In this document: piece after piece, positions 3,230 through 53,445 of the stretch
Layout of the letters: every line of letters begins with the position of its first letter
Position numbering within the stretch: position 1 is the first letter of the stretch
Virus record (IMG/VR): IMGVR_UViG_3300032293_000813
Coordinates: 87,000-150,999 of that record
Strand: one strand, 5' to 3'
Source: a virus
Taxonomy: Duplodnaviria > Heunggongvirae > Uroviricota > Caudoviricetes
DNA: 64,000 bases
Made by a program: the position numbers and the translations under genes
The notes under the pieces: model-generated
The model's input: the letters and a program-made list of their open reading frames with translations, nothing else
Database searches by the model: none
What the model was told of the DNA's origin: nothing

Positions 3230-4198
3230 CTACGACTTTTTTTTTAATTCTTCATCGGTTAGTATCACTTCATTTTTTTCCACATTTGTTGTAGTGGAAT
3301 TAATTTCGTTTTTTTTTATGTCCTCATTATATTGAGTAGCCGCATTGACTAATTGTTCATTTGGTTCTGTTGGATTCTCTATTTCATTAAAAAACACCTC
3401 AGCATCTTTATCCGATGCTAATATTGGTGTTTCTCCATACACTTCATATAAAGAAGGTACTTTTTCTTCCTCTCTTTTCATTACTAACCCGTTAAATGCG
3501 ATAATAAGAGCGATTGCGAGTGGGTCAAACACTATTACAATCAAAAATATGAAGAATTTTACTACATTTTTAAGTTCTATACCAAATGCTTCAGCCACAA
3601 ATCGGAATCCACCTATTTCTTTCTCTAAATCGATGTTAGCAATCTTAATTTTGTTGATTTCTTCAGTATTTTTAGCGTTATCTTCCTGCAATTTACTGAT
3701 TTTATCGTTTAATTTACCGATTTCTCTATCTCTATTATCTACGGAACGAAGTAATCTACTATTTACCTTACCACCATCCAAAATTTTACCTTGATTGGTG
3801 TTAGATTCGGTAATTTGGGTGGATAATTGGGTAATTTGAGTGGTGTTTTGGTCTATTTTCGTTTGCCACACCGCAACTTCCCTATCCACTTGTTGTAATT
3901 GTAAAGATTGTTGTTGGAATGCGTTAGAAAGGTAACCAAATATACCCGCAGAGGTGATTATCATCAGGATACCCACCGAAATGGTTAAATACCACTTATT
4001 GAACCCCTTAATATCATCCCAAGTCTGTTTTAGATAGGTTGCAGCCACTAATTTAGCGAATTCTAATGAACCAGCCATTACCATAACAGAAGTAGATGCC
4101 CCTGCAAAGAGAACACCTAATCCTGTTACGGAAAAGAATGCAGCACATCCTGCGATGATAACTGCTGATAATCCTACTAATGCTTTTAACCAATTCAT
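3230..4198 (-). CDS. membrane protein (2 N-terminal TM helices, coiled-coil, C-terminal TM)
   Basis: Hydrophobic stretches and heptad-like Q/L-rich middle region. Confidence 0.5.
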   Translation of the reverse strand: MNWLKALVGLSAVIIAGCAAFFSVTGLGVLFAGASTSVMVMAGSLEFAKLVAATYLKQTWDDIKGFNKWYLTISVGILMIITSAGIFGYLSNAFQQQSLQLQQVDREVAVWQTKIDQNTTQITQLSTQITESNTNQGKILDGGKVNSRLLRSVDNRDREIGKLNDKISKLQEDNAKNTEEINKIKIANIDLEKEIGGFRFVAEAFGIELKNVVKFFIFLIVIVFDPLAIALIIAFNGLVMKREEEKVPSLYEVYGETPILASDKDAEVFFNEIENPTEPNEQLVNAATQYNEDIKKNEINSTTTNVEKNEVILTDEELKKKS

Positions 4199-9812: not shown

Positions 9813-10496
9813 TTAAACCAAATATTGTATATTATGTTTCATAGTTTCATACTGAACATTGAAAAGAAGTGCAAACCTATTAACATCCTCCTTCACCTCG
9901 CTGACCATATGAAACGGGTCTGATTCGCCACTAAAATTAAGGAATAATATATCAGCAAAGGTTGGAACTATTTCTTCATCTTCAACTACAAATAATCCCC
10001 CATATTCTTTCTTGTATTCTTTGTTCAAATATATCAATATATTAGCAGGTTTCCTGTGAGGGAATTCTTCATACCCATCTGGTTTACCATCTCTATGACC
10101 ATTTAATCCACCTCCTTTAATATAGAGTGTTAATAATGGCTTTCCTATAAATAATGTGTGTCTTTTTTGACATTCGTTTTTGAATAATTCAAATGATTTA
10201 TTCAATATCCAATTATGTAGTTTTGGGTAATCACTCCATTCTAATTCTCCACCATTTAAACACAGTTGACCTATTATGGAATCAGGCATAGATTCATATC
10301 TCTCCGCAATCATATTCATAAAAGATTTAGCTTTATCATGTGATTCATGCACCTCCATCATCCCGAACTCACCTGGACCTCTATGAATTGTTTTAGTGTA
10401 TTTTTGCAAATCAGTTGATATCTGATATATCTTATCTAATTCTTCTTTTAAATGATTTATATCATATAAGTTCTCTTTGTAGTATGCACCTTCCAT
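9813..10496 (-). CDS. putative 2OG-Fe(II) oxygenase-like protein
   Basis: NGHRDG (HxD) ... FHMVSEV ... NRFAL arrangement; weak. Confidence 0.35.
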   Translation of the reverse strand: MEGAYYKENLYDINHLKEELDKIYQISTDLQKYTKTIHRGPGEFGMMEVHESHDKAKSFMNMIAERYESMPDSIIGQLCLNGGELEWSDYPKLHNWILNKSFELFKNECQKRHTLFIGKPLLTLYIKGGGLNGHRDGKPDGYEEFPHRKPANILIYLNKEYKKEYGGLFVVEDEEIVPTFADILFLNFSGESDPFHMVSEVKEDVNRFALLFNVQYETMKHNIQYLV

Positions 10497-10552
10497 AATT
10501 TTGTATTTATGTTATAATTATACATATAATCGTTTTATTAAAATGTTTTGAT

Positions 10553-11515
10553 ATGAAAAAAACCTTCACTATAGATTTCGGTAAATTTGATGAGAATCGA
10601 TTAGTTTCCGAATATTCATTAGATTTCGAAGTACAAGAAAATCCCATAGCCGAATTGTGGTATGATATGTTAAATGGTTTATTGAAAGATGAAACATGGA
10701 AACTAGAAACCCGTTGGGGAGCATTTAAACTACCAACTCGTCATCCTAAGATATTAGTAGATAAACTAAAAAGATGTGTAGAAACGATTAACAACTCTGA
10801 TTGGTTTGAATATCATATTATCGAATCTGATATGATTACGGAAGATTATCCAATGGAGGTTCATAATATTATTCACCATCATTTCGAAACACTAATTGGA
10901 CAAGTGTGGAGGCCATCGGAATATTGGAATAGAATATGTGAAAGACAAGATTGGGCTCTTATAAATGCAGTTAGAGGATTGAATGACCTTTCACATGAAA
11001 TCGAAGAGTGGAATATGAGAGGAGATGCTACAATCTATACTACTTTTATGAATGGCGTTTCTCCAATACAAAAAGTAGAACTCCCAAAAGAAGCGGATGA
11101 ATGGTTTACATTGGATGGTGCATTTGGTAGAGGTTATTTACACTATGCACAATTAGGTAAGACGTGGCAAGAAGTGTGTATCGATGATGATGACCAAATA
11201 GAACCAGGTAATATTTCCGAACACCGTTTACTTAGTGGAGAGTTTGATTTACAATTCTCTTTATTTGATAGAACTCACGAAGGTATGATTGAATCTTTTG
11301 GTATGAGAGATAAACTCGCTAAATTTGAAAAAACACCTGAAGATAAAAGTCTGAGATTAGGATATTGTCCTGTATTTGATATAAAGGGACAGGATAAGTT
11401 TAGTACGTTAGATAAAGAAAATATAATTGATGGGGTTAGAAATCATCCCCAAATCATACGAATGAAAATAGAAAATACGGGTCGAGCATTTACTCCATAC
11501 TACGACCCATACTAA
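10553..11515 (+). CDS. hypothetical protein (only plus-strand gene in the first 56 kb)
   Basis: 320-aa ORF in the intergenic space between minus-strand genes. Confidence 0.5.
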   Translation: MKKTFTIDFGKFDENRLVSEYSLDFEVQENPIAELWYDMLNGLLKDETWKLETRWGAFKLPTRHPKILVDKLKRCVETINNSDWFEYHIIESDMITEDYPMEVHNIIHHHFETLIGQVWRPSEYWNRICERQDWALINAVRGLNDLSHEIEEWNMRGDATIYTTFMNGVSPIQKVELPKEADEWFTLDGAFGRGYLHYAQLGKTWQEVCIDDDDQIEPGNISEHRLLSGEFDLQFSLFDRTHEGMIESFGMRDKLAKFEKTPEDKSLRLGYCPVFDIKGQDKFSTLDKENIIDGVRNHPQIIRMKIENTGRAFTPYYDPY

Positions 11516-12179
11516 TTAACTTTTCCGCTAAAACTTTATTACCTTCTTCTGAAAGATGTAAATCTTCTTTTGAGTAAGTTAAGTTATTTTTCTTAGCCCA
11601 ATTAAGACAAGATAATTCATTCCCAAATCTAATAAAATTAATTTTGTTAAACATAGGAGTGGATTTGTACCAGGTATCAAAGTATATGAATATTATTTTA
11701 GAACCCATCTTTTCTACACTACTTTGAATATTATATAAAGAATAGAGTAATTTGTTATACTCATAATCATCATTATACATATACGTCTGATAATCTCTAA
11801 ATAATTGTATTTTCTTTTCGTAAAATTCAATAGATGAGTAATCATTCTTATCAAACATAATTTTAAAATTAGAAACAACTTCATTTCCTATATCAGGATT
11901 GATTAAATTCTGTAATGATATTAAGTTTCTAAATTTAGAATCATAATAAGAATATCTGGTTAAGAATGTAGGTTGAAATAAAATTAGTGAATTCTTTAAT
12001 TCATATTGGTGGTATCTCTTATTGAATTCATGTATAATAGATTCATTTGAATTACCAGGAATAGAATGATTCTGATACTGAACTCCATAATCGTTTGCTA
12101 CTAAATCAACAAATCCTTTGGTAAAATCCTGTCTCCAACAGGAAAAAGAACAACCAAAGGATATAATGCTATTTATCAT
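11490..12179 (-). CDS. SGNH/GDSL-hydrolase-like paralog 1 (GCS variant)
   Basis: N-terminal ISFGCSFSCW resembles SGNH block I and matches three other paralogs in the window. Confidence 0.4.
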   Translation of the reverse strand: MINSIISFGCSFSCWRQDFTKGFVDLVANDYGVQYQNHSIPGNSNESIIHEFNKRYHQYELKNSLILFQPTFLTRYSYYDSKFRNLISLQNLINPDIGNEVVSNFKIMFDKNDYSSIEFYEKKIQLFRDYQTYMYNDDYEYNKLLYSLYNIQSSVEKMGSKIIFIYFDTWYKSTPMFNKINFIRFGNELSCLNWAKKNNLTYSKEDLHLSEEGNKVLAEKLISMGRSME

Positions 12180-12188
12180 AATTAATAT

Positions 12189-12557
12189 TGGTGGAGGTGG
12201 AGGGAGTCGAACCCTCGTCCAAATACGGATTTAATAAACCTCATTCACAAGCTTAGTTAGTTTTTCTTAACTAACAAAATAGATAAAGATTTATACATTC
12301 GTTATCATTAATGTTCCAATTCGATTTCGGGTTCAATTGGTCTCCACCTGAGTTCACATTCTATTTTAAGTCCCACGATGTGTGCGGGAGGGATTAGGCT
12401 GCTATAGCGTAATCAGCACCAACGAATGCCATAGCATCTTCGAAGGTCATTGTAGATAATTCTACGTCGTTTATTGTTCGATAGGTATTTAAGGATTTCC
12501 ATCTAACCCTGCTTGCAACTTACCAACTCATCGTACCTGTCAAAACCAGGCACCCCC
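12189..12557 (-). ncRNA. ssrA: tmRNA (SsrA), one-piece, ~369 nt
   Basis: The 5' end GGGGGUGCCUGGUUUUGACAGG resembles E. coli GGGGCUGAUUCUGGAUUCGACGGG. The 3' end GGACGAGGGUUCGACUCCCUCCACCUCCACCA resembles E. coli GGACGCGGGUUCAACUCCCGCCAGCUCCACCA; the acceptor stem pairs GGGGGUG with CACCUCC. An internal tag frame ends ...GGU GCU GAU UAC GCU AUA GCA GCC UAA (GADYAIAA*). Confidence 0.8.
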
Positions 12558-14173: not shown

Positions 14174-15202
14174 TTATTCTCTAATTGTATCCAACGTTAC
14201 ACAATGAGGCCCACCACTAAAGGTTCTAGCATGTCTCATACGGACGGGTATAGAATCTACCCCATACTTCTTTAATTCTTTCATAAGAGGTATCTGTCGT
14301 TCCTCTACTATCATCGTATTCTCATCATAAGAAAGAGTGTTCATTCCCAACCAGGGTGATGCTTCTGCCCAATGTTCTAAACAATTTGTTTCCACCATCT
14401 CAGGAGAGTATATAACCTCCCACGATTGAAAGATTTTAGGTAGGTTGGTATGATTTACCCTTTTAGGATTAACTAAGACCAGTCCCTCTCTAATGAGTAC
14501 AAAAGTGGTATCTATATGGATGAATGCATATACATCTTCTATAGGATGTACATTATACTTTTCTTTCATATTTTCATCCAACCATTTTTGAAGATATTCG
14601 GCTCCTGCTCTGTTGCCGGTATTAGATATTAGGAATAGAATATCGTTATTACACTTAAGAATATTAGCCGCATCAAATACAGGCTCATCATTTCTTAATG
14701 TAGGGCCTGGTAACAATCCCCTATCATATATCGAATCTAATAATTTTGGTTTAGGAAAATCTACCCAATGTGATTCATCGAATAGATGTTTAAATGCTCT
14801 CGTTTCATTTTGTCGTTGGCGGAGAGCCATAGGAGTAGCAATAACTTTATCTTCTATAACTAACATAGAATCTCTAGGGCAGTATCCGTAGTAACCATCT
14901 ACTTCCCAATTTTCAGTTGAATAGGTTTCACTCCAATCGATTAAAGCAGGCCTGTGAACTTTAACACCTAACCCTTCTAATGTTTTACTTAAATTGTTTA
15001 GGTCTTCCGTAGTTTCTTCAATCATCCAATTAGGATAAGTTCCATATGGTATCTTACGAAATTGGTCATCTGTGTAATTAGCGTAATCAATCGTATGTAA
15101 TGATTTATCTCTTATAGTAGGAATCTGAGCAAATTCAGGTCTTCCTACGATTATCTCTTTTAGTTTCCCCCACTCATTTCTTATATAAGGTTTAATCTTC
15201 AT
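14174..15202 (-). CDS. L-arginine:glycine amidinotransferase (AGAT/CyrA/SxtG family)
   Basis: Collinear with human AGAT: [20 protein letters not shown] vs [29 protein letters not shown]...CPRDSMLVI...[36 protein letters not shown]; C-terminal catalytic SGGPHCVT vs GGGFHCWT. Confidence 0.85.
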   Translation of the reverse strand: [342 protein letters not shown]

Positions 15203-15212
15203 AAAAATTTAT

Positions 15213-15782
15213 TTAATCTATAAACGCTGCATTTGCATCTCTATTAGAAAGAATAGGAGTTTGAGTAGGCCAATCTATTTTTAATTTCGGGTCATCCCAT
15301 CTAGCCGTCTTTTGTTTAGTGTCATCATTATATTCACCTTCATACGCCATTTTGTATGTGAAAAGAGAATCATCGGTTAGCACATAGTGACCATTAGCAA
15401 ACATCGGAGGACAGAGTATCTGTATTTGAGTTTGAGGAGACATAATAAATGTTTCAGATTTTAAATATGTTTCCGATTCAGGTCTCATATCAACTAACAC
15501 CGTATATAGTGAACCCAATGGACAACTTAATAGCTTCCACGTCTTATTATCGTAATGCAATCCTCTCAATACTCCTTTATAGGATTGTGAAAATCTATCA
15601 TGTTTAAACTCTAAATCAGTTGGTAATACCTTTGGGAAATAGTCCGTATGAAATGTAGTCCATATTGAGCCCCTAAATTCATGATAAACTGAATTGGATA
15701 TAATTTTTACATCCGTTAAAACTTTACCACTATTGACATGAAATTCATCCCAATTTTGATTTTTGTAAAATAACTTTTCCAT
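15213..15782 (-). CDS. RmlC-like cupin (dTDP-4-dehydrorhamnose 3,5-epimerase family)
   Basis: GVLRGLHYD, KLLSCPLGSLYTVLVDMRPESETY, FANGHYVL, RWDDPKLKIDWP and LSNRDANA align with RmlC motifs. Confidence 0.8.
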   Translation of the reverse strand: MEKLFYKNQNWDEFHVNSGKVLTDVKIISNSVYHEFRGSIWTTFHTDYFPKVLPTDLEFKHDRFSQSYKGVLRGLHYDNKTWKLLSCPLGSLYTVLVDMRPESETYLKSETFIMSPQTQIQILCPPMFANGHYVLTDDSLFTYKMAYEGEYNDDTKQKTARWDDPKLKIDWPTQTPILSNRDANAAFID

Positions 15783-16423
15783 TATATTAAATTTTGTTTG
15801 TTTTTATTAATTCTAATTTTCCTATATGGCGATAACACATATTCTTCATAGTGAACATCACTCATCTCCATACCTAAATATTTAAATAAATCTCTAATGT
15901 TAGATTTATCATGTTCTACAAATATATCTTCATAGTAGAATATAGGAAATTTTTTATCATATGATATCTTATGAAGAATTTCACTTGATTCCATATACCT
16001 ACTAAACATTGTTTTAATGTAAGATGGTTCTATTTTATCAACATCGTAAATCTTAGGAGTATGCCACCCAATACCTCTTTCCCTCATAGATGTTTCATTG
16101 ATAGCAAAACTTTCCGATTGAGCAAGTTTATCCTTCCTATCCAATATAATTATTTTATCAAAAAAAGTGTAACACCAATCGAGATATTCATATACATTCT
16201 TAAATGAATCAATCGGATAATCATCTATACCAATTAAAAATAAATTTTTAATTAATATGTTTTCTACATTTAAAATAGAATCTATTTTCTTTAGATATTG
16301 ATTGAATTCGTAATTGAATGGCTCTATAAGAGTTGTATGATTAGATAATTTTATATGAGAATCTATCAATTTAACCAATGAAGTAGAACCACTTCTAGGT
16401 GTAGCTAATATTAATATTCTCAT
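15782..16423 (-). CDS. Stf0-like sulfotransferase
   Basis: ILILATPRSGSTSLVKLIDSH matches the Stf0 5'-PSB PAPS-binding loop (ILASQRSGSTLLVESL). Confidence 0.65.
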   Translation of the reverse strand: MRILILATPRSGSTSLVKLIDSHIKLSNHTTLIEPFNYEFNQYLKKIDSILNVENILIKNLFLIGIDDYPIDSFKNVYEYLDWCYTFFDKIIILDRKDKLAQSESFAINETSMRERGIGWHTPKIYDVDKIEPSYIKTMFSRYMESSEILHKISYDKKFPIFYYEDIFVEHDKSNIRDLFKYLGMEMSDVHYEEYVLSPYRKIRINKNKQNLI

Positions 16424-17035: not shown

Positions 17036-17201
17036 TATCTAATATAAAGTATCTATGATAAATGTTTAGCTTTAATTCTATCTACTACCTCCTTCATTGC
17101 CAAAGATGTTTTAGTTTTCAATTCGGGTGTAATAGGGGCAATTACAACTTTAATTACAGTCTGCGGTCTTTCAATTTTATTTATAATCATTTTTATATTA
17201 T

Positions 17202-18686
17202 TTAAGCTTTTGCAAATCTTTCTATACACGCGGGGCACCACGATGAATAACACCAGTCTCCACAATAACTCCATGGACACCAACATGGGTTATGCATTAC
17301 CCCAAAATCACCTGTACCCAAATCAACTAAAAATAAATCCGATGGCTCGAAATCTAAAGCATATACCATCATTTTAGCATGCTCCATTTCTAATGATGCA
17401 ATTTCTAATGTAGTTAATTCTGATGTTGTGGAATCTGTTATTACTATTTTATCCCCCACATACATTTTATTTAATATCTCAAATCTAGTTGCAGAAGAAC
17501 CTGATTCTTCAATATAATATGTACATGCAGGTGAATCTATCCAATTTCTACCATCTGTTAATGTAACTCTGATAAACATAGTATCAACTGATGCAGAAGT
17601 TACAAAATTCAAACTAGAACTAGTCTGAGTTAAAGTTTGGTTAGATTGTTGTAAATTACTTTCCCAACCTAACACATCCAATTTACCTTCTTCAAAATTA
17701 CCACCATGATTACCATTAAAATCAACGAAATCAATAGAACGGATATAGCTACCTAATTGTATAGTGTCAGCCCTTTGCAAAGAACCGGTATAATCTATAA
17801 TCATTGAATCCTCGTCCGTATGATATTCGTGCTTTACATCATCTATTCTTTTTGTAATATATTTGTATCTACTTTTCTGGTCAAGTTTAGTTGAACCACT
17901 TATAAATTCAGTTGCGAAATTAGAAAGGGGTACAATGGTGGATTGTTTATATCCACCCATATTAATAACATCTAGAGTAGGACCGTATAATATATCAATA
18001 TTTCTTATTATAGAATACCTATCCTCTACCAAATTATCCTCAGAATATACAAATTCTTGCACTAAATAATTAGTGGGTAAATTACCTTTTATATTATCCA
18101 ACTCTGACTGATTACTCAATGTATGAAGTTCTGGATATAAAACTTTATCGTATTCAGGATATCTAGCTTTTATCAAAAGATTTGGGTTCGAAGTAGAGGT
18201 ATAATCTACTGAATCCAATGTATCTAAATTTACTTCAGCAGTTTCAAAAAATGTTTTTGGGATATACTCAGAAGTATGCATTAAATTAAAAAACTCAAAT
18301 TTATCAGCGCAATATGTTTCATCTACCAATGCAGTTGTATCATATGATTGTCTTAATATAAATTTAGTAGGAGAATCTTCTATATAAGGTACAGTGATTG
18401 AACCCAATGGAACAATATATTCGGCGAATGTAATATTACTTCCCGAACATCTTTCTTCTAAAATTTGTTTAAATCTATATGGTTCATATAAAGGTGTAAA
18501 CGCATCTGTTTCTGTCCAAATATAGTGAAATTCCGTAACTCCACTTGAACTCAGCATATTAAATAAACTATCATAATCTAGTATATCTGCCCCCTGATTA
18601 TAAATCGTTGTATTGGTATTAATTTCTAAAAACTTGACATCTCCATTATATTCTAATAAATCACTGCCAATTATTACTCCTTTCAT
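17202..18686 (-). CDS. hypothetical 494-aa protein with Cys/Trp-rich C-terminal tail
   Basis: C-terminus HNPCWCPWSYCGDWCYSSWCPACIERFAKA; no confident family. Confidence 0.5.
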   Translation of the reverse strand: MKGVIIGSDLLEYNGDVKFLEINTNTTIYNQGADILDYDSLFNMLSSSGVTEFHYIWTETDAFTPLYEPYRFKQILEERCSGSNITFAEYIVPLGSITVPYIEDSPTKFILRQSYDTTALVDETYCADKFEFFNLMHTSEYIPKTFFETAEVNLDTLDSVDYTSTSNPNLLIKARYPEYDKVLYPELHTLSNQSELDNIKGNLPTNYLVQEFVYSEDNLVEDRYSIIRNIDILYGPTLDVINMGGYKQSTIVPLSNFATEFISGSTKLDQKSRYKYITKRIDDVKHEYHTDEDSMIIDYTGSLQRADTIQLGSYIRSIDFVDFNGNHGGNFEEGKLDVLGWESNLQQSNQTLTQTSSSLNFVTSASVDTMFIRVTLTDGRNWIDSPACTYYIEESGSSATRFEILNKMYVGDKIVITDSTTSELTTLEIASLEMEHAKMMVYALDFEPSDLFLVDLGTGDFGVMHNPCWCPWSYCGDWCYSSWCPACIERFAKA

Positions 18687-18722: not shown

Positions 18723-19013
18723 TTATATTATAGTATCCTTAGATTTCTTAATTAATCGTTCCATATATTTAGAATCAATATCCTCCCACTTCTCCATTGG
18801 ACATGGGTTAAACATAGGAGAGAATACCTTTTTACCTAATGGACACCCACACAACTTACACACCGTAGACCATTTAATTCCCCTAAGTGTCTCCTTTCTG
18901 TGTTCACATGATTTGCATATTTCCAACCTATCCTTTGCCATAGATTTCTGAGATTCCGATGGATTTTTAGAAATTACCCAAGCTTCAAATATTTCTTTAT
19001 AGTTTGGTATCAT
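18723..19013 (-). CDS. Cys-rich putative zinc-binding protein
   Basis: CKSCEH...CKLCGC...NPCP. Confidence 0.4.
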   Translation of the reverse strand: MIPNYKEIFEAWVISKNPSESQKSMAKDRLEICKSCEHRKETLRGIKWSTVCKLCGCPLGKKVFSPMFNPCPMEKWEDIDSKYMERLIKKSKDTII

Positions 19014-19747
19014 ATTATCGATTTATTACTTTTTGGGGATTCATAATATTCGTATATAGAATCATACCTTAGCATAAATTCACTATCCAATTGTATAGCC
19101 GTTTTCACAAATGAACTAGAATTTACATGCTTTAATTTGAATTCAACATTAGTAATATTAGATACCCATTCTTCTAATTTATACATCTCATTGATATTAA
19201 ACCAAATAATATTTTTATGGTGGATATGCCAATGTGAAAGCGGGGTGATTAAAATATCAATTATATTATTAATATATCGATATGATGCATCATATCTTAA
19301 CTCCGGTATTATGTTAAATAAATATTCGTTTATGATGTGGTGTCTATTTTTATTTGTCATAATATCATCTGTATTAAAAAAGAATAATTCATCTAATGTA
19401 AAATTAGAAAATTTATATGATAATTCCCTTGCACCAATTCTTTCTAAATCAAATATAATATGCTTGTATAGTGAATAAAATCTTTCATATTTATTACGTT
19501 TTACCGCTATAATAGGTAAATCGTAACCAAATTTATTTTGTAATTCGGATAGAGGTGAATGCCCATGCTCTATAAAATTCATTATATCCGATTCATCTAT
19601 GGAATTAAAATCTATCTTAGAATTATCAAAATCAGCTTTAGTATCTAAATTTTTTACAGTTAGACCATTTATTATACATGAATAATGAAATGAAGTAGAA
19701 CCACAACGTGGTAATGAAATATATAGAAATTTATTATCTACTAACAT
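19010..19747 (-). CDS. putative sulfotransferase (Sulfotransfer_2-like)
   Basis: N-terminal FLYISLPRCGSTSF resembles the carbohydrate-sulfotransferase PAPS loop (hIhIPKtGGTs). Confidence 0.45.
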   Translation of the reverse strand: MLVDNKFLYISLPRCGSTSFHYSCIINGLTVKNLDTKADFDNSKIDFNSIDESDIMNFIEHGHSPLSELQNKFGYDLPIIAVKRNKYERFYSLYKHIIFDLERIGARELSYKFSNFTLDELFFFNTDDIMTNKNRHHIINEYLFNIIPELRYDASYRYINNIIDILITPLSHWHIHHKNIIWFNINEMYKLEEWVSNITNVEFKLKHVNSSSFVKTAIQLDSEFMLRYDSIYEYYESPKSNKSII

Positions 19748-20394
19748 TATACCAAACTTTTTTCTTTTTTAATTAACTCAAATCCAACATTGCCCGCCAA
19801 CACAACTCTATCTATTGTAGAATTGGGTGCATTATTTGGAGAGTGCGGCATCCACCCCTCCATCACTACTAAATCATCTTCCTCTGGTCTTATCCAATAT
19901 TCTGTATTATCCTTTCCTTTGAAGTATAGTACACCATCTTCACCATCCATTACATCGGGCATCTGTATATAATAAACATATGTGTAATCCGGAACAAATG
20001 ATTTTGTTTTTTTATTAATTTCTGTATGAGTATGGTATTTTTGCTTTTTATCGTAAAAGTTTTCTTGCACCGGCTCCTTTGAGCGAACAACATTCACCCA
20101 CGCATCCGTATTAACTTTATTAAATTCTTTATTAAATTGTTGTAGGTATATATCCTTACATATATCAATACCATACTGACAAACCTCATCTAATTTATTT
20201 TCTACGGTAAAAGTTCCGTTGAAATCTATATTGTTATTCCATTCTTTTTTATAACCAAACCCATCTGTATGAACTATTTCTTTTAGGGATTCTATTAAAG
20301 TATTAGCTTCGATTAAAATCATATCTCTATGTGATGATAGATTTAATTTACCTTTCCATATAAATGTATTATCATCAAAATAAATCTTTTCCAT
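19747..20394 (-). CDS. hypothetical protein, possibly cupin/2OG-oxygenase-like
   Basis: YHTHTE ... MPHSP ... RVVLAG spacing; weak. Confidence 0.3.
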   Translation of the reverse strand: MEKIYFDDNTFIWKGKLNLSSHRDMILIEANTLIESLKEIVHTDGFGYKKEWNNNIDFNGTFTVENKLDEVCQYGIDICKDIYLQQFNKEFNKVNTDAWVNVVRSKEPVQENFYDKKQKYHTHTEINKKTKSFVPDYTYVYYIQMPDVMDGEDGVLYFKGKDNTEYWIRPEEDDLVVMEGWMPHSPNNAPNSTIDRVVLAGNVGFELIKKEKSLV

Positions 20395-20395
20395 A

Positions 20396-21643
20396 CTATA
20401 TTAATTCTTTTATTGAAACTTTTTTATTTTTCTTAAAAATCATCTGATAGTTGTAAACAAAAAAAGTTAATTCAGTTTCCTCTACTTCTTTTAAATCAAA
20501 TATTTTTAATAATTCAGCATTCGTTTTTGGTATAATATTATTATTATCGTCTAATATTAATTTTAATTTTTCTGGTATTGGCATTTCATATGATGCTTTC
20601 CAAAACGGAGTATCAAATCTTTCAGCTAAATAGTGATATCTAACGAACATCATGTTTTGCTCATTGATACTAGAGCAGGTATCATTAAATCTATCTCTAA
20701 GTGATACATCAAACTTAGCACTTATTAATCTCTTTAGTTGCATTATAGTTGACATCAATGAGGTAGCTTCCAACGGTTCTATGAATCCATATGATAGCCC
20801 AATTGCAACACTATTACCTATCCAACTTCTTTTATGTGTACCTGGCTTAAAATCAAATACTTTTTGTATAGTAATTTCTTTACCTATGTAATCTTCCACT
20901 TCTTTCTTAGCTTCTTCAACCGTAATAAATTCTGAATTAAATGTATATCCACATCCCCATCTATGTTGCAATGGTATCTGCCACATCCAACCTGAATCCA
21001 TTGAAATCATATTAGTGTGGGTTACATCTCCTATTGCATATTGATTTTCTTGTGGTAAAAAATATGCCATAGCTCTATTCAATAAAAGATATTTAGAATA
21101 ATCAATCCATTCATCATTGTGAACCTTACCTATAATAACTCTAGCAAAACCACTGCAATCAAATACAAAATCTATACCCTTAATATCAATTCCTTCCTTA
21201 AGTGAAATGGAATGGATATCCTCACCTGTTTTATCTACCACATCGACCTCACCTTCAATCCACTTAACACCTCTTGATAATGATACTTCTTTTAAGTATT
21301 CCGCTACCATTCTTGCATCAAAATGATATGCGTAATTTTGTTTAAACGCATTTGGTTTCGGTCCTGTAAAAAGATGCGATGAACTTTTCCCATCACCTGT
21401 CCAATTTGATAGTGTTAACCCTAATTTACTTGTGCAACCTGTTCTTTTAAAAAAATCATTTTGGTTTATTTCCAATAAAGATAAAAACGCACCAAAGTTA
21501 GGAGTAGCTCCTTCTCCTGCTCCTAATATTCCTATCTTAGAACTTTCTATTAAAGTAACAGATGCATCTTTCCAAAATTTATTAACAGATAGGGCGGTTA
21601 GCCACCCCGCAGTTCCGCCTCCAATAACAATTACATTTTTCAT
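20396..21643 (-). CDS. flavin-dependent halogenase (tryptophan-halogenase family)
   Basis: N-terminal VIVIGGGTAGW FAD motif plus WMWQIP (WxWxIP) motif. Confidence 0.7.
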   Translation of the reverse strand: MKNVIVIGGGTAGWLTALSVNKFWKDASVTLIESSKIGILGAGEGATPNFGAFLSLLEINQNDFFKRTGCTSKLGLTLSNWTGDGKSSSHLFTGPKPNAFKQNYAYHFDARMVAEYLKEVSLSRGVKWIEGEVDVVDKTGEDIHSISLKEGIDIKGIDFVFDCSGFARVIIGKVHNDEWIDYSKYLLLNRAMAYFLPQENQYAIGDVTHTNMISMDSGWMWQIPLQHRWGCGYTFNSEFITVEEAKKEVEDYIGKEITIQKVFDFKPGTHKRSWIGNSVAIGLSYGFIEPLEATSLMSTIMQLKRLISAKFDVSLRDRFNDTCSSINEQNMMFVRYHYLAERFDTPFWKASYEMPIPEKLKLILDDNNNIIPKTNAELLKIFDLKEVEETELTFFVYNYQMIFKKNKKVSIKELI

Positions 21644-22209
21644 ATTAAACTAACTTTTTTAATTGATGATGGCCAAACATTCAACGAATATCTTAGACCA
21701 GATTCTATAGTATCAACCGAATGTGTTATATTAGAATCAAACATAAACACACTTCCCATTTCCTTTGGTACTGAATACTCTACTTTATTTATATTGTATT
21801 TAACCAACCCTCCTTCATAATTATCATTTAACTGAATAATAAGTGTTGTGGTTGCTCCGTTTATTATCTCATGCTTATCTTCATGCCAATCTAAAAAATC
21901 TCCATCGGAATAACGATTAAATGAATACTTTTGAATAGAAGTATATGTTACACCATTGAATGGGTTTAACTCATTTGAAATTAATAAAATTTTATCCGAT
22001 ATATTCTTTATTCGAGAATCGGATAATACATCTCCTATAAAATAACCACCCATTCTTTTATTACCATTGTATTCAATATCCTCTTCCATTACCACACCAT
22101 TTAGAATTTTGGATGATTTCATTTGTTGCAATCCATTATCCTCGCCATATGAAATAATAAAATCACACTCTTCTTTACTTAAAAAGTTTTGAATAAATTT
22201 GTAAAACAT
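21640..22209 (-). CDS. 2OG-Fe(II) oxygenase
   Basis: WHEDKH (HxD) ... ITHSV ... RYSL (RxS). Confidence 0.55.
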   Translation of the reverse strand: MFYKFIQNFLSKEECDFIISYGEDNGLQQMKSSKILNGVVMEEDIEYNGNKRMGGYFIGDVLSDSRIKNISDKILLISNELNPFNGVTYTSIQKYSFNRYSDGDFLDWHEDKHEIINGATTTLIIQLNDNYEGGLVKYNINKVEYSVPKEMGSVFMFDSNITHSVDTIESGLRYSLNVWPSSIKKVSLI

Positions 22210-22421
22210 TATTTATTTTTTAATCCGTATTTAATCCACTTATACCAAACTCTTTCATGTAGATAATACTGAATGGGTTTATAAATCAATTCTGCTACTC
22301 CAAATGCCGCTCCAACTTTAATTGAACCACTTACCCACCACATTATACCAAACCCAATTAAGGTAGATATAATACGGTATGAAATAGTTTTAGCTATATG
22401 TCGTTTACGTTGTACTATCAT
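22209..22421 (-). CDS. small membrane protein (2 TM)
   Basis: Hydrophobic 70-aa ORF. Confidence 0.4.
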   Translation of the reverse strand: MIVQRKRHIAKTISYRIISTLIGFGIMWWVSGSIKVGAAFGVAELIYKPIQYYLHERVWYKWIKYGLKNK

Positions 22422-23026
22422 ATTAAACCTTTTATGTTTTTATTTTTTAAAAATTCAGTACCATTAAAAGTAGTATATTTTAATTCGTAGTTATATCTAA
22501 ATGATGTGTTTTTACTATATGGCAAGGATTCAATTTCACCTTCAGTTAACTCATGTCTATATGAGTTAAATCGTGTATCTAATGTGCGTAAAGCAAAAAA
22601 TGAAACTATAGTACCATTCTTACAATTAGGTTTTATGCAATCTAAAAATTTAGGAATATTTTTATCATGATGAGTATCATGTAAAACACCATCAAATTGT
22701 TTGTTTAGCATAGGTATGATATTAATCCAATCACCTAATATCACTTCAGTATTTGGTTTACCTTTAGCCCATACAAGCGCATGCTTATATATTTCAGGGT
22801 GAACCTCTATAATCGTATGAGATTTTACGGCTGGATTTGATTGAATAGCATCTGCCGATATATGCATACCAAATCCGATTTCTAAAATATCACCACCATT
22901 CATAGTGGCAATTTCAGCTAATTTATCCATCAAAGATTTTTCACCTCTGTGCATAACATAGTCACCTTTTAATCCATCTATTCTGATTTCATCTGATGAT
23001 AATATTAATTTTTCTGTTCCGTTCAT
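22418..23026 (-). CDS. guanidinoacetate N-methyltransferase-like (GAMT/RMT2 family) SAM methyltransferase
   Basis: VMHRGE...GGDILEIGFGMHISADAIQ...HTIIEVHPEIYKHAL...FDGVLHDTHH aligns with rat GAMT VMERWE...GGRVLEVGFGMAIAASRVQ...HWIIECNDGVFQRLQ...FDGILYDTYP. Confidence 0.75.
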   Translation of the reverse strand: MNGTEKLILSSDEIRIDGLKGDYVMHRGEKSLMDKLAEIATMNGGDILEIGFGMHISADAIQSNPAVKSHTIIEVHPEIYKHALVWAKGKPNTEVILGDWINIIPMLNKQFDGVLHDTHHDKNIPKFLDCIKPNCKNGTIVSFFALRTLDTRFNSYRHELTEGEIESLPYSKNTSFRYNYELKYTTFNGTEFLKNKNIKGLI

Positions 23027-23403
23027 TACCCTTTGGTTTCATCATAGGTAATAGTTCCATCTGATGTCATATGACCTGTTCTGATAGCAGTTCCACTAAT
23101 TGTTGCAATATCCGTTGGTGGCTCGTGATAGATTACATCGTAACCAACACCTCTACCATAATTTACCGATTCAATATCAGGAATAATAGATAACAAAATT
23201 TTATCAATCTTATCTAAAAAGAATTTTTCATTTGATAACTCCTTTAGAATTTGTTGTGCAGTTTTAGGATTGTTTTCATCCTGCTGAACATCTCTGATTG
23301 CTACCCAAACATTTTTACCTTTATTTAATTGTTGGTTTATTAACCATTCATGCCCTTTGTGCCAATTTTGCCATCTTCCGATGTACATTGCATATTTTTT
23401 CAT
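23026..23403 (-). CDS. NadM-like nucleotidyltransferase (archaeal-type NMN adenylyltransferase family)
   Basis: YIGRWQNWHKGHEWL vs NadM IIGRFQPFHKGHLEV, and ISGTAIR vs YSGTEIR. Confidence 0.55.
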   Translation of the reverse strand: MKKYAMYIGRWQNWHKGHEWLINQQLNKGKNVWVAIRDVQQDENNPKTAQQILKELSNEKFFLDKIDKILLSIIPDIESVNYGRGVGYDVIYHEPPTDIATISGTAIRTGHMTSDGTITYDETKG

Positions 23404-23843
23404 AAATCTAATTTTTGTAATAATTTTCTATATGATTGAAATTCGTTATCAATTGTTGTATCACAATCTATAAAATTTTCAATCGGTGGTTGGTATCCTT
23501 CCACAAAGAAATTCTCTCTACCTCTTTCCTCCGTTGTATGAACATATACTTCTTTGATGTTATCGTCTCCTATCAATTGTTTAAAAGAATCTCGTTGGTC
23601 TTTATATGGAGAAACTAATGATACTAATGCAAGACCTCCTTTATTATGTATGAAGTGTGCAAGATGTTGTGCCAATTCTACATTCTTTCTACGACCTATT
23701 TCTGAATAATCCTTATTGTTAAATATTTCTCTTATATCATCACCATCTACAATAGTAGGGTGGAGAGAATGAAGATGAGTATATAACATCTTTACTAAAG
23801 TTGTCTTACCTGCACCTGGCTGACCTGTTAACCAATAAATCAT
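23400..23843 (-). CDS. cysC: adenylylsulfate (APS) kinase, PAPS-forming
   Basis: WLTGQPGAGKTTL, DGDDIREIFN and VSLVSPYKDQRD match CysC WFTGLSGSGKST, LDGDNVRHGL and ISPHRAER. Confidence 0.8.
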   Translation of the reverse strand: MIYWLTGQPGAGKTTLVKMLYTHLHSLHPTIVDGDDIREIFNNKDYSEIGRRKNVELAQHLAHFIHNKGGLALVSLVSPYKDQRDSFKQLIGDDNIKEVYVHTTEERGRENFFVEGYQPPIENFIDCDTTIDNEFQSYRKLLQKLDL

Positions 23844-50578: not shown

Positions 50579-50911
50579 TTAAACATCCCATACCTGTCTC
50601 CCATAGATACACACTAACTCACCAAATATCCTCATCTCGTCCATTTCGGAAAACAAAATCTGCAAAGGTTGATGACCTCCATGTGGATTATGAACGGGCT
50701 CTAACCTATACCACCGCCCATCTATACTATCGGTATGAGTTTCCTTCCACAACATAAGAGCAAGAAAATCCTTTGTCTCACCACTCTCCTTCAACTCCAT
50801 CATAAAGTGGTAATATGCTCCCCTCTCCGTTACATCGTTGATAATAATATAGTATCCACCACTTTGTAGCCCAAACCCAACAAGCTTTTTATAGTTTTGA
50901 ATCCTTAACAT
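50579..50911 (-). CDS. tandem small-paralog family member 3 (MLRIQNY)
   Basis: N-terminal motif. Confidence 0.4.
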   Translation of the reverse strand: MLRIQNYKKLVGFGLQSGGYYIIINDVTERGAYYHFMMELKESGETKDFLALMLWKETHTDSIDGRWYRLEPVHNPHGGHQPLQILFSEMDEMRIFGELVCIYGRQVWDV

Positions 50912-51231
50912 TACGCTATACTATCTTTATGATTCTCCAATGTACTCTCAACTAATTCGTAAAGAAGAACGGAATGGAGGATATCCTTTGGTTGTAACAT
51001 ATAAATACACCTCCAACTCGCACCCACTTGGAACACTTCACATTTATACACCTTACCCACTAACCCATCCGATAATATCCTCTCTATTCGGCAAGTTACG
51101 GGTTGCTTATCTCCAATACGTTGCTCAAAGACGAATACATAATAATCCGCCCCTTCGAACGCCTTTGCCAAATCCCATCCGTATATAACGCCGGAAGTGA
51201 GGTCTTTATCATATCGTTTGATTGTTAACAT
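50911..51231 (-). CDS. tandem small-paralog family member 4 (MLTIKRY)
   Basis: N-terminal motif. Confidence 0.45.
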   Translation of the reverse strand: MLTIKRYDKDLTSGVIYGWDLAKAFEGADYYVFVFEQRIGDKQPVTCRIERILSDGLVGKVYKCEVFQVGASWRCIYMLQPKDILHSVLLYELVESTLENHKDSIA

Positions 51232-51593
51232 ACACGGTCTAATTGGCGGATAAGTGAATAAATGAATACGTTAGGCGAAACGAAATCATTGTAATGGAAA
51301 TAAAAAGAGTTCTCCTTCATAGACGGACCATAAAGATTCATCCTATAGTGGTCGTGGTCGTTATACATAGGTAGAGTATGTAGATAAGAAGAATACTCTG
51401 TTCCCCCATAGTTAAACCCTATACGATACTGAGGTTCTGATACACTATCCTCTAAGTAAGTATCTACCCATAGGAACTCAATCGTATTACTATATGGATG
51501 TGCACGGACACCTAAGTCGTGTATCCCCATTAGTTTATCCTTTATATTCTTTATCTGTAGTACCTTACCACTCTGTATATACTTAATACTCAT
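51225..51593 (-). CDS. hypothetical protein in paralog array (MSIKYIQSG...IKNIKDK)
   Basis: Weak motif similarity. Confidence 0.35.
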   Translation of the reverse strand: MSIKYIQSGKVLQIKNIKDKLMGIHDLGVRAHPYSNTIEFLWVDTYLEDSVSEPQYRIGFNYGGTEYSSYLHTLPMYNDHDHYRMNLYGPSMKENSFYFHYNDFVSPNVFIYSLIRQLDRVC

Positions 51594-51605
51594 AACATTG
51601 TTGAT

Positions 51606-51938
51606 TTACCCGCAACTATTTTCTAATACCTTTAACATCTCTCTTTCTATAAACCACTTATCCTTAATCTCATCCTTAGTAAGATGGCTATGAGAGAACC
51701 CACCACCCTCGCCAGGAGATTTTAATTGTTGCGATTGTATTCGGTAGAGTATCGGTTCTTCGCTCCGCCTATCTCTACTTATGGCAACATCGAACATAGG
51801 ATAGTTCCACCCACTTATACTCTCAAATCGGAATGTGTACCAATCTTCTAACTCCTCCGTATGTTTGCATTGATATAACTTCCCCTTAATAGAGAAAACA
51901 AAATCAATCCAAATGTTATGGTTCTTAATCGTTATCAT
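51606..51938 (-). CDS. tandem small-paralog family member (MITIKNH)
   Basis: N-terminal motif. Confidence 0.45.
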   Translation of the reverse strand: MITIKNHNIWIDFVFSIKGKLYQCKHTEELEDWYTFRFESISGWNYPMFDVAISRDRRSEEPILYRIQSQQLKSPGEGGGFSHSHLTKDEIKDKWFIEREMLKVLENSCG

Positions 51939-52255
51939 TATCTATAAGGTTTATATGATTCCATTATCTTAACACACTTTTCTATCCACTCCCAATGATA
52001 CTCTAATACCAAACGATTAACTACTCCACTCCATAGAGGTTGTGTACCTGGTGTAGTAGTGAACATCATCATAGGTAGTTCCCCTTTAGCGTTCTCAAAC
52101 TTCCTACCTAAAAAGATTTGGTATTGATGTCTTCCCTTCGAACCTATATCCGTCCAAAGGAAAACGTAATTATCCCCAATCTCCATAACGGAATCCAATT
52201 GCCATCCTAAGAAATGAGCACCCTCTCCTAATTTATAGTTCTTAATTGTTATCAT
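51938..52255 (-). CDS. tandem small-paralog family member (MITIKNY)
   Basis: N-terminal motif. Confidence 0.45.
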   Translation of the reverse strand: MITIKNYKLGEGAHFLGWQLDSVMEIGDNYVFLWTDIGSKGRHQYQIFLGRKFENAKGELPMMMFTTTPGTQPLWSGVVNRLVLEYHWEWIEKCVKIMESYKPYR

Positions 52256-52256
52256 A

Positions 52257-52556
52257 CTAAAATGGATTATCTCTTAATACACCTTCTAATTGCCCTACCA
52301 TATTGTCTTTATCCGCAATCCAATTAGCAGTTACCGATACCTTTATATCTCTACCATTCAATAGAATATCATAGATGGGAGACCCTTCGTAATCCTTAAA
52401 TGATTCCCTTCTCAACCCAATAAGGCAAGTAAATCCCCCTTCGTTTATTATTTGTATATCGTAGAACCTATCATACTCACTCACCTGTTGAATATGGTAT
52501 CTTCCTCCTAAGAACTCCGTTTGTAATAACTTTTGGTATCCTTTAATTGTTAGCAT
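52257..52556 (-). CDS. tandem small-paralog family member (MLTIKGY; ORF extends to 52586 but the internal Met restores the family N-terminus)
   Basis: Internal start at residue 11 gives MLTIKGYQKL. Confidence 0.4.
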   Translation of the reverse strand: MLTIKGYQKLLQTEFLGGRYHIQQVSEYDRFYDIQIINEGGFTCLIGLRRESFKDYEGSPIYDILLNGRDIKVSVTANWIADKDNMVGQLEGVLRDNPF

Positions 52557-52818
52557 CGGTATAAGTTTCGTTATAGTATGCCTCAATATCTTCCCTACCT
52601 ACATTATGTGTACATCCAAATGCAAAATCTATTGTCTGATTCTTCTCCATCTCTAAGTAGTTCCTCTTAAACATCTCCCAATGAATTGAATCGGTTTGTA
52701 AATCCTTCATCAACTCTATTCGTTGGAGGGCTAGTGTAAGTGCTGTTTTCATATTATAAATTAAATTTTTTAAATCTCCAATCTCCTGCCTCCCCATCAA
52801 AACCACCTCTATCCGCAA
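52543..52818 (-). CDS. hypothetical small protein (overlaps both neighbours; real start probably internal)
   Basis: ORF overlaps its neighbours by 14-65 nt. Confidence 0.25.
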   Translation of the reverse strand: MRIEVVLMGRQEIGDLKNLIYNMKTALTLALQRIELMKDLQTDSIHWEMFKRNYLEMEKNQTIDFAFGCTHNVGREDIEAYYNETYTDANN

Positions 52819-53122
52819 TATCTAATATGTTCTCTAAGAATTGGGTAAAGTTATCCAATGAAATCATATCTTGCGTAGTTACTCCCATAGGATATGATTT
52901 TTGCTTAGTCCAATCGTATATCCATAGTTGATATCGGTAATTAAGTCCTTTACTCCTAATCTCTATAGCCTCTCTTACGATATCCATTCGGTATTGGTTC
53001 TTAGATGTATTCAATTTTATCACATATAGTTCGGTTAAGGTATCCATACCATCAATTCTAAATCTATCTGATACCACTTTGGTAGCCATTGAATAAAATC
53101 CTTTTATATCTAATCGTTTCAT
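52754..53122 (-). CDS. hypothetical protein in paralog array (MKRLDIKGFY)
   Basis: Weak motif similarity. Confidence 0.35.
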   Translation of the reverse strand: MKRLDIKGFYSMATKVVSDRFRIDGMDTLTELYVIKLNTSKNQYRMDIVREAIEIRSKGLNYRYQLWIYDWTKQKSYPMGVTTQDMISLDNFTQFLENILDIADRGGFDGEAGDWRFKKFNL

Positions 53123-53127
53123 ATAGT

Positions 53128-53445
53128 TTATCGTTTATCTTTGAAGTATCTTTTAATTACTGAGTATAATTGGTATCGGAACTCTTCAGCTCCTCTTTTT
53201 AAGTTACTATAACTGAGGGTATGTTGTACATATACTCCATCTACTTTAATCTGCAATGAACCATTCTGATTAGGTTCTTTAATTAAGTGAACCTTTATAA
53301 CCTCACCCCAACCTCCAATTACATATTCGAATTCGTAAGCCCCTTCCCAATTAATAGATGTTACACAATGTGCCAATACTGAACCATCGGATTTAACTAT
53401 ATCTCCTTTTATCTTATCGTGTCCGTTTATGTTGATATACTTCAT
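53128..53445 (-). CDS. hypothetical protein in paralog array (MKYININGHD)
   Basis: Weak motif similarity. Confidence 0.35.
   Translation of the reverse strand: MKYININGHDKIKGDIVKSDGSVLAHCVTSINWEGAYEFEYVIGGWGEVIKVHLIKEPNQNGSLQIKVDGVYVQHTLSYSNLKRGAEEFRYQLYSVIKRYFKDKR

Follow-up and report, generated by a model that had tools for sequence, protein, structure and literature searches.

The methyltransferase gene and its island

Positions 87,000 to 150,999 of the IMG/VR virus record IMGVR_UViG_3300032293_000813 (Caudoviricetes) form a stretch of 64,000 nucleotides, here called the window, which contains a 202-amino-acid open reading frame (ORF) on its minus strand that resembles guanidinoacetate N-methyltransferase (GAMT). 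We analyzed this ORF, which is predicted to encode an active S-adenosylmethionine (SAM)-dependent N-methyltransferase of the GAMT/RMT2 family, together with the gene island in which it lies and an unannotated gene of that island, x494, whose product we propose as the substrate. The genes and features of the island, in order of decreasing window coordinate, are as follows (aa, amino acids).

23400..23843, minus strand: P-loop kinase resembling adenosine 5′-phosphosulfate (APS) kinase, 147 aa (Pfam APS_kinase, 1.4e-18; TIGR00455, 1.6e-18)
23026..23403, minus strand: nucleotidyltransferase-like protein, 125 aa, with the HxGH motif WHKGH and an ISGTAIR motif (phrog_10255, phrog_395)
22418..23026, minus strand: GAMT/RMT2-family SAM-dependent N-methyltransferase, 202 aa, ATG start
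22209..22421, minus strand: DUF2061 small membrane protein, 70 aa (Pfam PF09834, 1e-15)
21640..22209, minus strand: prolyl 4-hydroxylase (P4H)-like 2-oxoglutarate (2OG)-Fe(II) oxygenase, 189 aa (Pfam PF13640, 1.2e-10)
20396..21643, minus strand: flavin-dependent tryptophan-halogenase-like protein, 415 aa (Pfam Trp_halogenase, 4.7e-92)
19747..20394, minus strand: second 2OG-Fe(II) oxygenase-like protein, 215 aa (Pfam PF13640, 1.6e-4, below the curated cut-off)
19010..19747, minus strand: sulfotransferase-like protein, 245 aa (N-terminal PRCGSTS loop read from the sequence; no match to a hidden Markov model)
18723..19013, minus strand: Cys-rich zinc-ribbon-like protein, 96 aa, conserved (weak matches to Zn_ribbon_8 and DUF6171; 24/89 loci)
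17202..18686, minus strand: x494, 494 aa, unannotated, the proposed substrate
17205..17288, minus strand: Cys/Trp-rich C-terminal tail of x494, PCWCPWSYCGDWCYSSWCPACIERFAKA, directly after His-Asn (...HN, then PCWCPWSYCGDWCYSSWCPACIERFAKA)
17053..17190, minus strand: small ORF of ~45 aa directly downstream of x494, its position and size (44–47 aa) kept in loci L001, L186, L187 and L188
16490..17035, minus strand: third 2OG-Fe(II) oxygenase, 181 aa (Pfam PF13640, 2.1e-7)
15782..16423, minus strand: sulfotransferase-like protein, 213 aa (PRSGSTS loop; weak Pfam Sulfotransfer_3 and Sulfotransfer_1 matches)
15213..15782, minus strand: RmlC-like protein (dTDP-4-dehydrorhamnose 3,5-epimerase fold; Pfam PF00908, 2.5e-38)
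14174..15202, minus strand: StrB1-type amidinotransferase, 342 aa (PDB matches; catalytic Cys motif GGPHCVTLD kept)

The APS-kinase-like, nucleotidyltransferase-like, methyltransferase and DUF2061 genes follow one another in that order. The methyltransferase start shares one base with the nucleotidyltransferase-like gene and its stop overlaps DUF2061 by 4 nucleotides, and the gene is, as judged from these overlapping stop and start codons, translationally coupled to its neighbors. The APS-kinase-like protein probably supplies 3′-phosphoadenosine 5′-phosphosulfate (PAPS) to the products of the sulfotransferase-like genes, and the nucleotidyltransferase-like protein has weak NCBIfam matches to nicotinamide mononucleotide adenylyltransferase and to a cytidylyltransferase family. 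DUF2061 appears to be under unusually strong constraint, being 80–96% identical across loci in which the methyltransferase and adjacent genes are only 55–65% identical.

Both strings that the sequence-only reading had compared with rat GAMT, GGDILEIGFGMHISADAIQ and FDGVLHDTHH, are present in the translation of 22418..23026, and its GAMT-like family call held: sequence, profile and structure comparisons all ranked GAMT first. In a phmmer search of all PDB sequences, rat GAMT (1xcj) was the top match (E = 3.4e-14, residues 20–119 of the query against 36–136 of GAMT), human GAMT (3orh) scored 1.5e-12, and four GAMT entries led the list, with the next family reaching only 0.095. Comparing rat GAMT (a reference identical to 1xcj_A) with a 41-sequence alignment of the family by hhalign returned a probability of 98.7% over residues 22–149. 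AlphaFold2, run on the same 41-sequence alignment, yielded a confident model (predicted local distance difference test, pLDDT, 92; predicted template modeling score, pTM, 0.90), for which a Foldseek search of the PDB placed human and rat GAMT first (E = 1.6e-13; template modeling score, TM, 0.73), followed by TrmR and spermidine synthase near 2e-7. The modeled fold is that of a class I Rossmann SAM methyltransferase nearest GAMT, N-terminal hairpin included, rather than that of an unrelated class I subfamily. The alignments behind the GAMT/RMT2 family call were made against GAMT. Two labels attached by JGI to some of the homologs, 'spermidine synthase' and 'YrrM O-methyltransferase', were rejected, because GAMT outscores those folds by a wide margin and the signatures of both are lacking.

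The residues expected of such an enzyme are in place. The SAM motifs, namely the loop E49-I-G51-F52-G53, the acidic E74 at the end of strand 2 and W100 after strand 3, are invariant in the 41 relatives, and in the wider family more than 100 of the 107 representatives keep the residues of the corresponding columns. The guanidinium of the GAMT substrate is said, from 2004 work by Komoto and colleagues, to be clamped by a pair of residues of which the Asp acts as base; we take this pair to be E45 and D134 of rat GAMT, with D134 as the base. In the phmmer alignment E29 and D117 of the phage enzyme fall opposite these two, and both are invariant in its clade and widely kept in the wider family (E29 equivalent in 89/107 representatives, D117 equivalent in 102/107). 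Enzymes of the GAMT/RMT2 family methylate a substituted nitrogen of a guanidino group.

Searches of a metagenomic set of 5.8 billion proteins returned 274 homologs of the methyltransferase at E ≤ 1e-3, all of which carry the precomputed Pfam annotation PF27704 (GuanidinoAc_N-MeTrfase). The ORF had no usable match in the 2025 Pfam copy that we searched, in PHROGs or in NCBIfam (best, Methyltransf_25 at E = 0.026); the PF27704 model is newer than that Pfam copy, which lacks it. A profile search extended the family to 1454 cluster representatives at E ≤ 1e-3, mostly 185–220 aa long, and all 298 of the family proteins that we retrieved matched rat GAMT by blastp. Relatives are encoded in at least 192 IMG/VR stretches. 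In 185,579 species genomes, by contrast, we found only seven cellular loci, all distant (34–42% identity) and all without the island genes, so that the subfamily looks virus-specific. Among GenBank phages, tblastn with the methyltransferase matched a single huge-phage record (LR745206), tblastn with a 658-aa neighbor matched none, and megablast with the 6 kb around the methyltransferase gene also gave no match.

The GAMT family in phages is already known and is not new here. The sequence-only reading had been aware of no such enzyme in phages, a view that is out of date in light of the IMG/VR counts and of earlier annotations: the best match to our model in BFVD is A0A8D9CBY1 (E = 7e-15, 33% identical), named 'Putative guanidinoacetate methyltransferase [uncultured marine phage]', and viral GAMT (K00542) was the most virus-enriched auxiliary gene in an ocean catalog, 85-fold enriched over cellular homologs and read as serving creatine synthesis (Tian et al., 2024; PMC11360552). 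Viral GAMT is mentioned too in a 2026 survey of P2-like viruses.

Two relatives stand in other settings. At locus L026 (4835..12961; Flavobacteriaceae) a 263-aa GAMT-like methyltransferase gene lies between the condensation and adenylation genes of a non-ribosomal peptide synthetase (NRPS), which suggests guanidino N-methylation of a non-ribosomal peptide. At locus L018 (3030..10486) a GAMT-like gene (189 aa, 45% identical) comes right after the gene for a 2291-aa Gly/Ser/Thr-rich collagen-like repeat protein and is followed downstream by glycosyltransferase-like genes.

An optional gene and the arginine of the x494 tail

To describe the island across viruses we used two sets of loci. The first, selected by the methyltransferase, comprised 91 viral loci, 89 of them with a called GAMT-like ORF, whose neighbors were clustered de novo; the second, selected by x494 and therefore unbiased with respect to the methyltransferase, comprised 27 loci with full flanks. 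Around the 89 GAMT-like ORFs the recurrent neighbors were P4H-like 2OG oxygenases (40/89), DUF2061 (40/89), the nucleotidyltransferase-like gene (34/89), APS kinase (31/89), x494 (30/89) and the sulfotransferase-like genes of the 213-aa type (29/89) and the 245-aa type (27/89). Selection by x494 gave a tighter picture, in which x494, the 245-aa sulfotransferase-like gene and the 215-aa 2OG-oxygenase-like gene were present in 27/27 loci, the Trp halogenase and the 189-aa 2OG oxygenase each in 26/27, DUF2061 and the nucleotidyltransferase-like gene each in 23/27, and APS kinase in 20/27. The methyltransferase was present in only four of the 27. Because the core is found in 20–27 of these loci and the methyltransferase in four, gene content marks the modification island as conserved and the methyltransferase as an optional tailoring cassette the size of one gene. 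The closest methyltransferase-free relative, L101, has the gene order of the window with the nucleotidyltransferase-like gene directly abutting DUF2061, and carries a different 2OG oxygenase gene (3354..3923, 189 aa) between its APS kinase and nucleotidyltransferase-like genes. It appears that gene-sized tailoring cassettes are exchanged within the island at fixed junctions.

None of the 658 homologs of x494 has a Pfam domain, and tblastn with x494 matched none of 50,697 GenBank phage records. The x494 product has an N-terminal region of ~290 aa without a recognized fold, a predicted Hint/intein-like domain at about residues 294–466 (17289..17807), and a 28-aa tail. With the family profile, the KlbA intein (2jmz) scores E = 1.7e-5 and other inteins and a bacterial intein-like domain score more weakly, and a 620-aa member of the family matches Intein_splicing over positions 1–155 of 155 at 2.9e-6, below the Pfam cut-off, with PT-HINT and Hom_end_hint also just below theirs. 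Invariant residues stand at both limits of the predicted Hint-like domain, S294 at its start and H465 and N466 at its end. Protein splicing is unlikely because the residue after the Asn is often Pro, Gly or Ala; instead, the tail is probably released by C-terminal cleavage through Asn cyclization at His-Asn, and x494 seems to be a precursor that cuts itself to yield a modified peptide. The tails are hypervariable, ~20–35 aa long, and usually contain six Cys and several Trp, with the cysteines nearly invariant. They are rich in Trp, Pro, Tyr and Ser, residue types on which a Trp halogenase, P4H-like oxygenases and PAPS-dependent sulfotransferases would be expected to act. The tail in the window also has an Arg (codon at 17217..17219), which we propose as the site of methylation.

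The presence of this Arg tracked that of the methyltransferase gene. In the CWC-type clade of x494, all seven distinct tails had an Arg where the methyltransferase gene adjoins DUF2061, always in the linear stretch after the last Cys and 1–3 residues before a conserved Lys (RFAK, RPPAK, RVAK, REK), compared with only 2 of 28 distinct tails from loci without the methyltransferase, in which the nucleotidyltransferase-like gene abuts DUF2061. Of the two exceptions, L105 has its Arg inside the Cys core, and the contig of L125 has a 69%-identical methyltransferase ~30 kb away (locus L033). The Fisher exact p value was 5e-6 for this clade and about 1e-8 for all clades, with kinship ignored. In a neighbor-joining tree of x494 bodies, the combined state of Arg and methyltransferase occurred in at least 3–4 separate clades, and the sister of the window's clade (L104 type, tail CIVNPIK) had neither. 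Two further, distant x494 clades show the same contrast. In one of them L039 and L060 combine Arg and methyltransferase, and L180 lacks the two; in the other, L047 and L032 (tail 'HN-RFEKI') have both, and L182 ('FVPEK') and L183 ('EGFFK') have neither. An R-x(1–3)-K motif is found in about 30 of the 35 protein clusters of the window's clade. Prospective look-ups were concordant, with P0309 having the Arg and a methyltransferase at the junction and P0335 having neither, and four new loci selected by the methyltransferase had a tail Arg in 4/4 cases. In L028 and L192, whose contigs measure 237 kb and 51 kb, a tandem array of three GAMT-like paralogs (10001..11874 in each; 205, 204 and 204 aa) adjoins an x494 homolog whose tail has three Arg. 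In these comparisons, the tail Arg tracks the methyltransferase gene across at least five x494 clades, with exceptions (L067, L056).

We therefore propose that the methyltransferase acts on the x494 product, N-methylating the Arg of its C-terminal tail either while the tail is still attached or once it has been released, and we put the probability of this reading at roughly 0.45. Of the readings considered, it accounts most economically for the family membership, the optional cassette and the Arg covariation taken together. In the mechanism that we envisage, the Hint/intein-like domain, ending in its invariant His-Asn, would release the tail by Asn cyclization, and the GAMT-family enzyme would methylate the substituted guanidino nitrogen of the tail Arg, acting on peptidyl Arg as the counterpart of Rmt2 acting on Rpl12 and of GAMT acting on guanidinoacetate.

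Several observations weigh against this proposal. Some loci have the gene and lack a tail Arg, namely L067/L179 (with a methyltransferase 48% identical to that of the window) and L056 (tail 'KV'), and divergent distal GAMT-like genes (44–50% identical) occur in L015, L123/L155 and L162 together with Arg-free tails. In 59 of the 89 GAMT-like loci (for example L031, L018 and L033) there is no x494 within 10 kb. The clades other than the CWC type have the Arg inside the Cys-rich part of the tail and offer no methyltransferase-free controls there, and the covariation is comparative, from a modest sample in which kinship was ignored. The Hint assignment of x494 depends on the match at E = 1.7e-5 and on the sub-threshold Pfam matches, and the AlphaFold2 model of x494 is poor (pLDDT 48). 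Finally, in the model of the methyltransferase, the GAMT-type N-terminal lid, which encloses a small substrate, is apparently kept and may suit a small molecule better than a peptide.

That lid is among the points that favor a substrate independent of x494, in which case the enzyme would N-methylate a guanidino group on a small molecule or glycan, such as free arginine, agmatine or a guanidinylated sugar, possibly also sulfated or nucleotide-activated by the products of the neighboring APS-kinase-like and nucleotidyltransferase-like genes. The overlapping start and stop codons that couple the gene to its nucleotidyltransferase-like and DUF2061 neighbors would fit such a role, as would three clade-invariant histidines (H26, H55 and H119) that are not His in GAMT and could bind an anionic group, the many GAMT-like genes without x494 nearby, and the NRPS cluster around the bacterial relative. 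We nevertheless regard a small-molecule substrate as unlikely: it leaves unexplained why the Arg of the x494 tail is almost confined to loci with the gene, and in most loci APS kinase, the nucleotidyltransferase-like gene and DUF2061 are kept without the methyltransferase, which is thus not an obligate step of theirs.

The covariation bears likewise on whether the enzyme might methylate Arg or another residue of a different macromolecule, for example a virion or fiber protein or a host ribosomal protein, with the tail Arg following as a by-product of linked inheritance. Rmt2 and Rpl12 provide a precedent, the GAMT-like gene of L018 directly follows the 2291-aa collagen-like fiber gene, that of L031 lies among replication genes, and L028 and L192 have their three tandem paralogs. 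Recurrence of the association in at least five x494 clades of differing backbone is hard to explain by hitch-hiking alone, and no alternative target was identified, making a different macromolecular substrate improbable compared with the x494 tail.

The amidinotransferase, creatine and the wider window

The sequence-only reading had also noted a homolog of AGAT 7 kb from the methyltransferase gene and had concluded that the two complete a creatine-type pathway. A genuine amidinotransferase with its catalytic Cys does lie 7.2 kb away, but it is of the StrB1 type rather than the AGAT type: among PDB sequences it matched StrB1 (1bwd) at E = 3e-83, colinear over 335 residues, ahead of SxtG (1.9e-50) and AGAT (4e-44). 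Like StrB1 (1BWD), an L-arginine:inosamine-phosphate amidinotransferase, it keeps the catalytic Cys along that colinear alignment; unlike StrB1, it is phage-encoded and has an RmlC-like gene, not streptomycin genes, as its partner.

Eleven genes stand between the amidinotransferase and the methyltransferase, and the two are not co-inherited. Among the 91 methyltransferase-selected viral loci, the amidinotransferase was found only in the window's own lineage (L001–L004 and L007); L035 has nearly the synteny of the window, including the RmlC-like gene, without it. It was present in five of the 27 x494-selected loci, four of which (L101, L145, L147 and L149) lack the methyltransferase. Its constant neighbor is the RmlC-like gene (L101, L145, L147, L149 and L187), and the pair (14174..15782, minus strand) forms an accessory module of the island in a few lineages (L101, L145–L149, L187). 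We also considered an association of the amidinotransferase with the near-universal penultimate Lys of the tails, as in homoarginine formation, and found no supporting pattern.

The conclusion that a creatine-type pathway is completed here was thus not supported. In such a two-step pathway the amidinotransferase would make guanidinoacetate or another amidinated amine, which the methyltransferase would convert to creatine or an N-methylguanidino metabolite. Both enzyme families are indeed in the window with their catalytic residues intact, the E45/D134 clamp is conserved, and viral GAMT is already cataloged under creatine biosynthesis (Tian et al., 2024; PMC11360552). Against this stand the StrB1-like character of the amidinotransferase (3e-83, versus 4e-44 for AGAT), its restriction to the window's lineage and its occurrence at four loci without the methyltransferase, its constant pairing with an RmlC-like gene rather than with a gene 7 kb and 11 genes away, and the lack of any creatine kinase or creatine user seen in the window.

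The substrate loop may point the same way, although sequence is an uncertain guide to it, since the GAMT contacts there are made via the backbone. In GAMT, the loop containing L170-T171 binds the carboxylate of guanidinoacetate. This GAMT loop (C168-N-L170-T171-S-W-G) pairs in the hhalign alignment with F144-A-L-R-T-L of the phage enzyme, and this loop, after strand 5, differs in sequence and length within the viral clade, with no conserved counterpart in sequence; N169 of GAMT is kept in 49/107 family representatives, but not in the phage methyltransferase. Because of the StrB1-type partner and the separate inheritance, and less certainly because of the variable carboxylate loop, we consider a creatine-type pathway very improbable.

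The source of the window is an uncultured tailed phage, probably a large one. Every long ORF of the 64 kb lies on one strand, and the GC content is about 0.30–0.38. The window encodes PhoH, a Band-7 protein and DNA-methyltransferase-like genes; near-identical DNA occurs both in viral contigs of IMG/VR and in metagenome contigs as long as 164 kb, and contigs of more distant island relatives have phage sheath, T4-baseplate and tail-fiber genes. Outside the island we noted the following.

12189..12557, minus strand: full-length transfer-messenger RNA (tmRNA) gene (Rfam RF00023, 105 bits; ARAGORN tag ending ...GADYAIAA), flanked by ORFs of 229 aa and 526 aa, the latter DNA-methyltransferase-like
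50579..53445, minus strand: about eight successive same-strand ORFs of like size (102–122 aa), which may be a paralogous array

Comparison with known systems

Vertebrate GAMT (EC 2.1.1.2; 1XCJ, 3ORH) is the best sequence, profile and structure match to the phage methyltransferase. The two have the class I fold and the N-terminal hairpin in common, and the GAMT residues E45/D134, the GFG motif, E89 and W116 are kept in the phage enzyme. The Rmt2 enzymes of yeast, fungi and plants have a GAMT-type catalytic domain of the same family, the PROSITE RMT2-type domain. Rmt2, a type IV protein arginine methyltransferase, forms delta-N-methylarginine (PMC4860837). It methylates the internal guanidino nitrogen of peptidyl Arg, and by analogy we propose the same chemistry for the phage enzyme; it differs in being ~400 aa long, with an extra N-terminal region and ribosomal protein L12 as its target, whereas the phage protein is a bare domain of 202 aa. 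If the phage enzyme does tailor peptidyl Arg, the GAMT fold has been recruited for the modification of ribosomal peptides outside eukaryotic Rmt2.

The ocean-virome 'GAMT' (K00542; Tian et al., 2024) and A0A8D9CBY1 belong to the same family, come from uncultured phages and were already annotated as putative GAMT. In the ocean-virome reports a role in creatine synthesis was derived from the KEGG label alone, and the neighborhood of the gene in the window and its covariation with the tail Arg argue against that function. If peptide-Arg tailoring is correct, the creatine-biosynthesis inference for ocean viral GAMT genes (PMC11360552) is wrong. That viral 'GAMT' genes may belong to peptide tailoring is a proposal open to test, and the remaining interest lies there, all of the functional statements made here being computational.

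The Hint-tail x494 family, widespread in viruses and unannotated, emerges as a likely substrate of a widespread phage modification island. We can sketch a wider reading, which we think somewhat unlikely in its entirety, in which the island is a phage pathway for a ribosomal-peptide natural product: self-cutting by the Hint-like domain would free a Trp-rich peptide of ~28 residues with six Cys, which would be halogenated, hydroxylated and sulfated and, where it bears an Arg near its C-terminus, also N-methylated, making the viral 'GAMT' genes peptide-tailoring genes. The set of modifications on the peptide so postulated resembles that of cone-snail toxins, although large uncultured phages would be its makers.

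Clusters with dioxygenase and Trp-halogenase genes in cyanophages were earlier predicted to modify peptides, with no substrate identified (Iyer et al., 2010; PMC2938197). Those cyanophage and bacterial clusters are like the present island in having multiple 2OG dioxygenases, Trp halogenases, sulfotransferases and PAPS synthesis, and in the logic proposed for them, by which a single peptide would be tailored by several enzymes. The island differs from them in adding a GAMT-type methyltransferase and a candidate substrate, the Hint-domain protein with its Cys-rich tail, and x494 may be the long-missing substrate of the dioxygenase/halogenase/sulfotransferase clusters that have been seen since 2010 in large aquatic phages.

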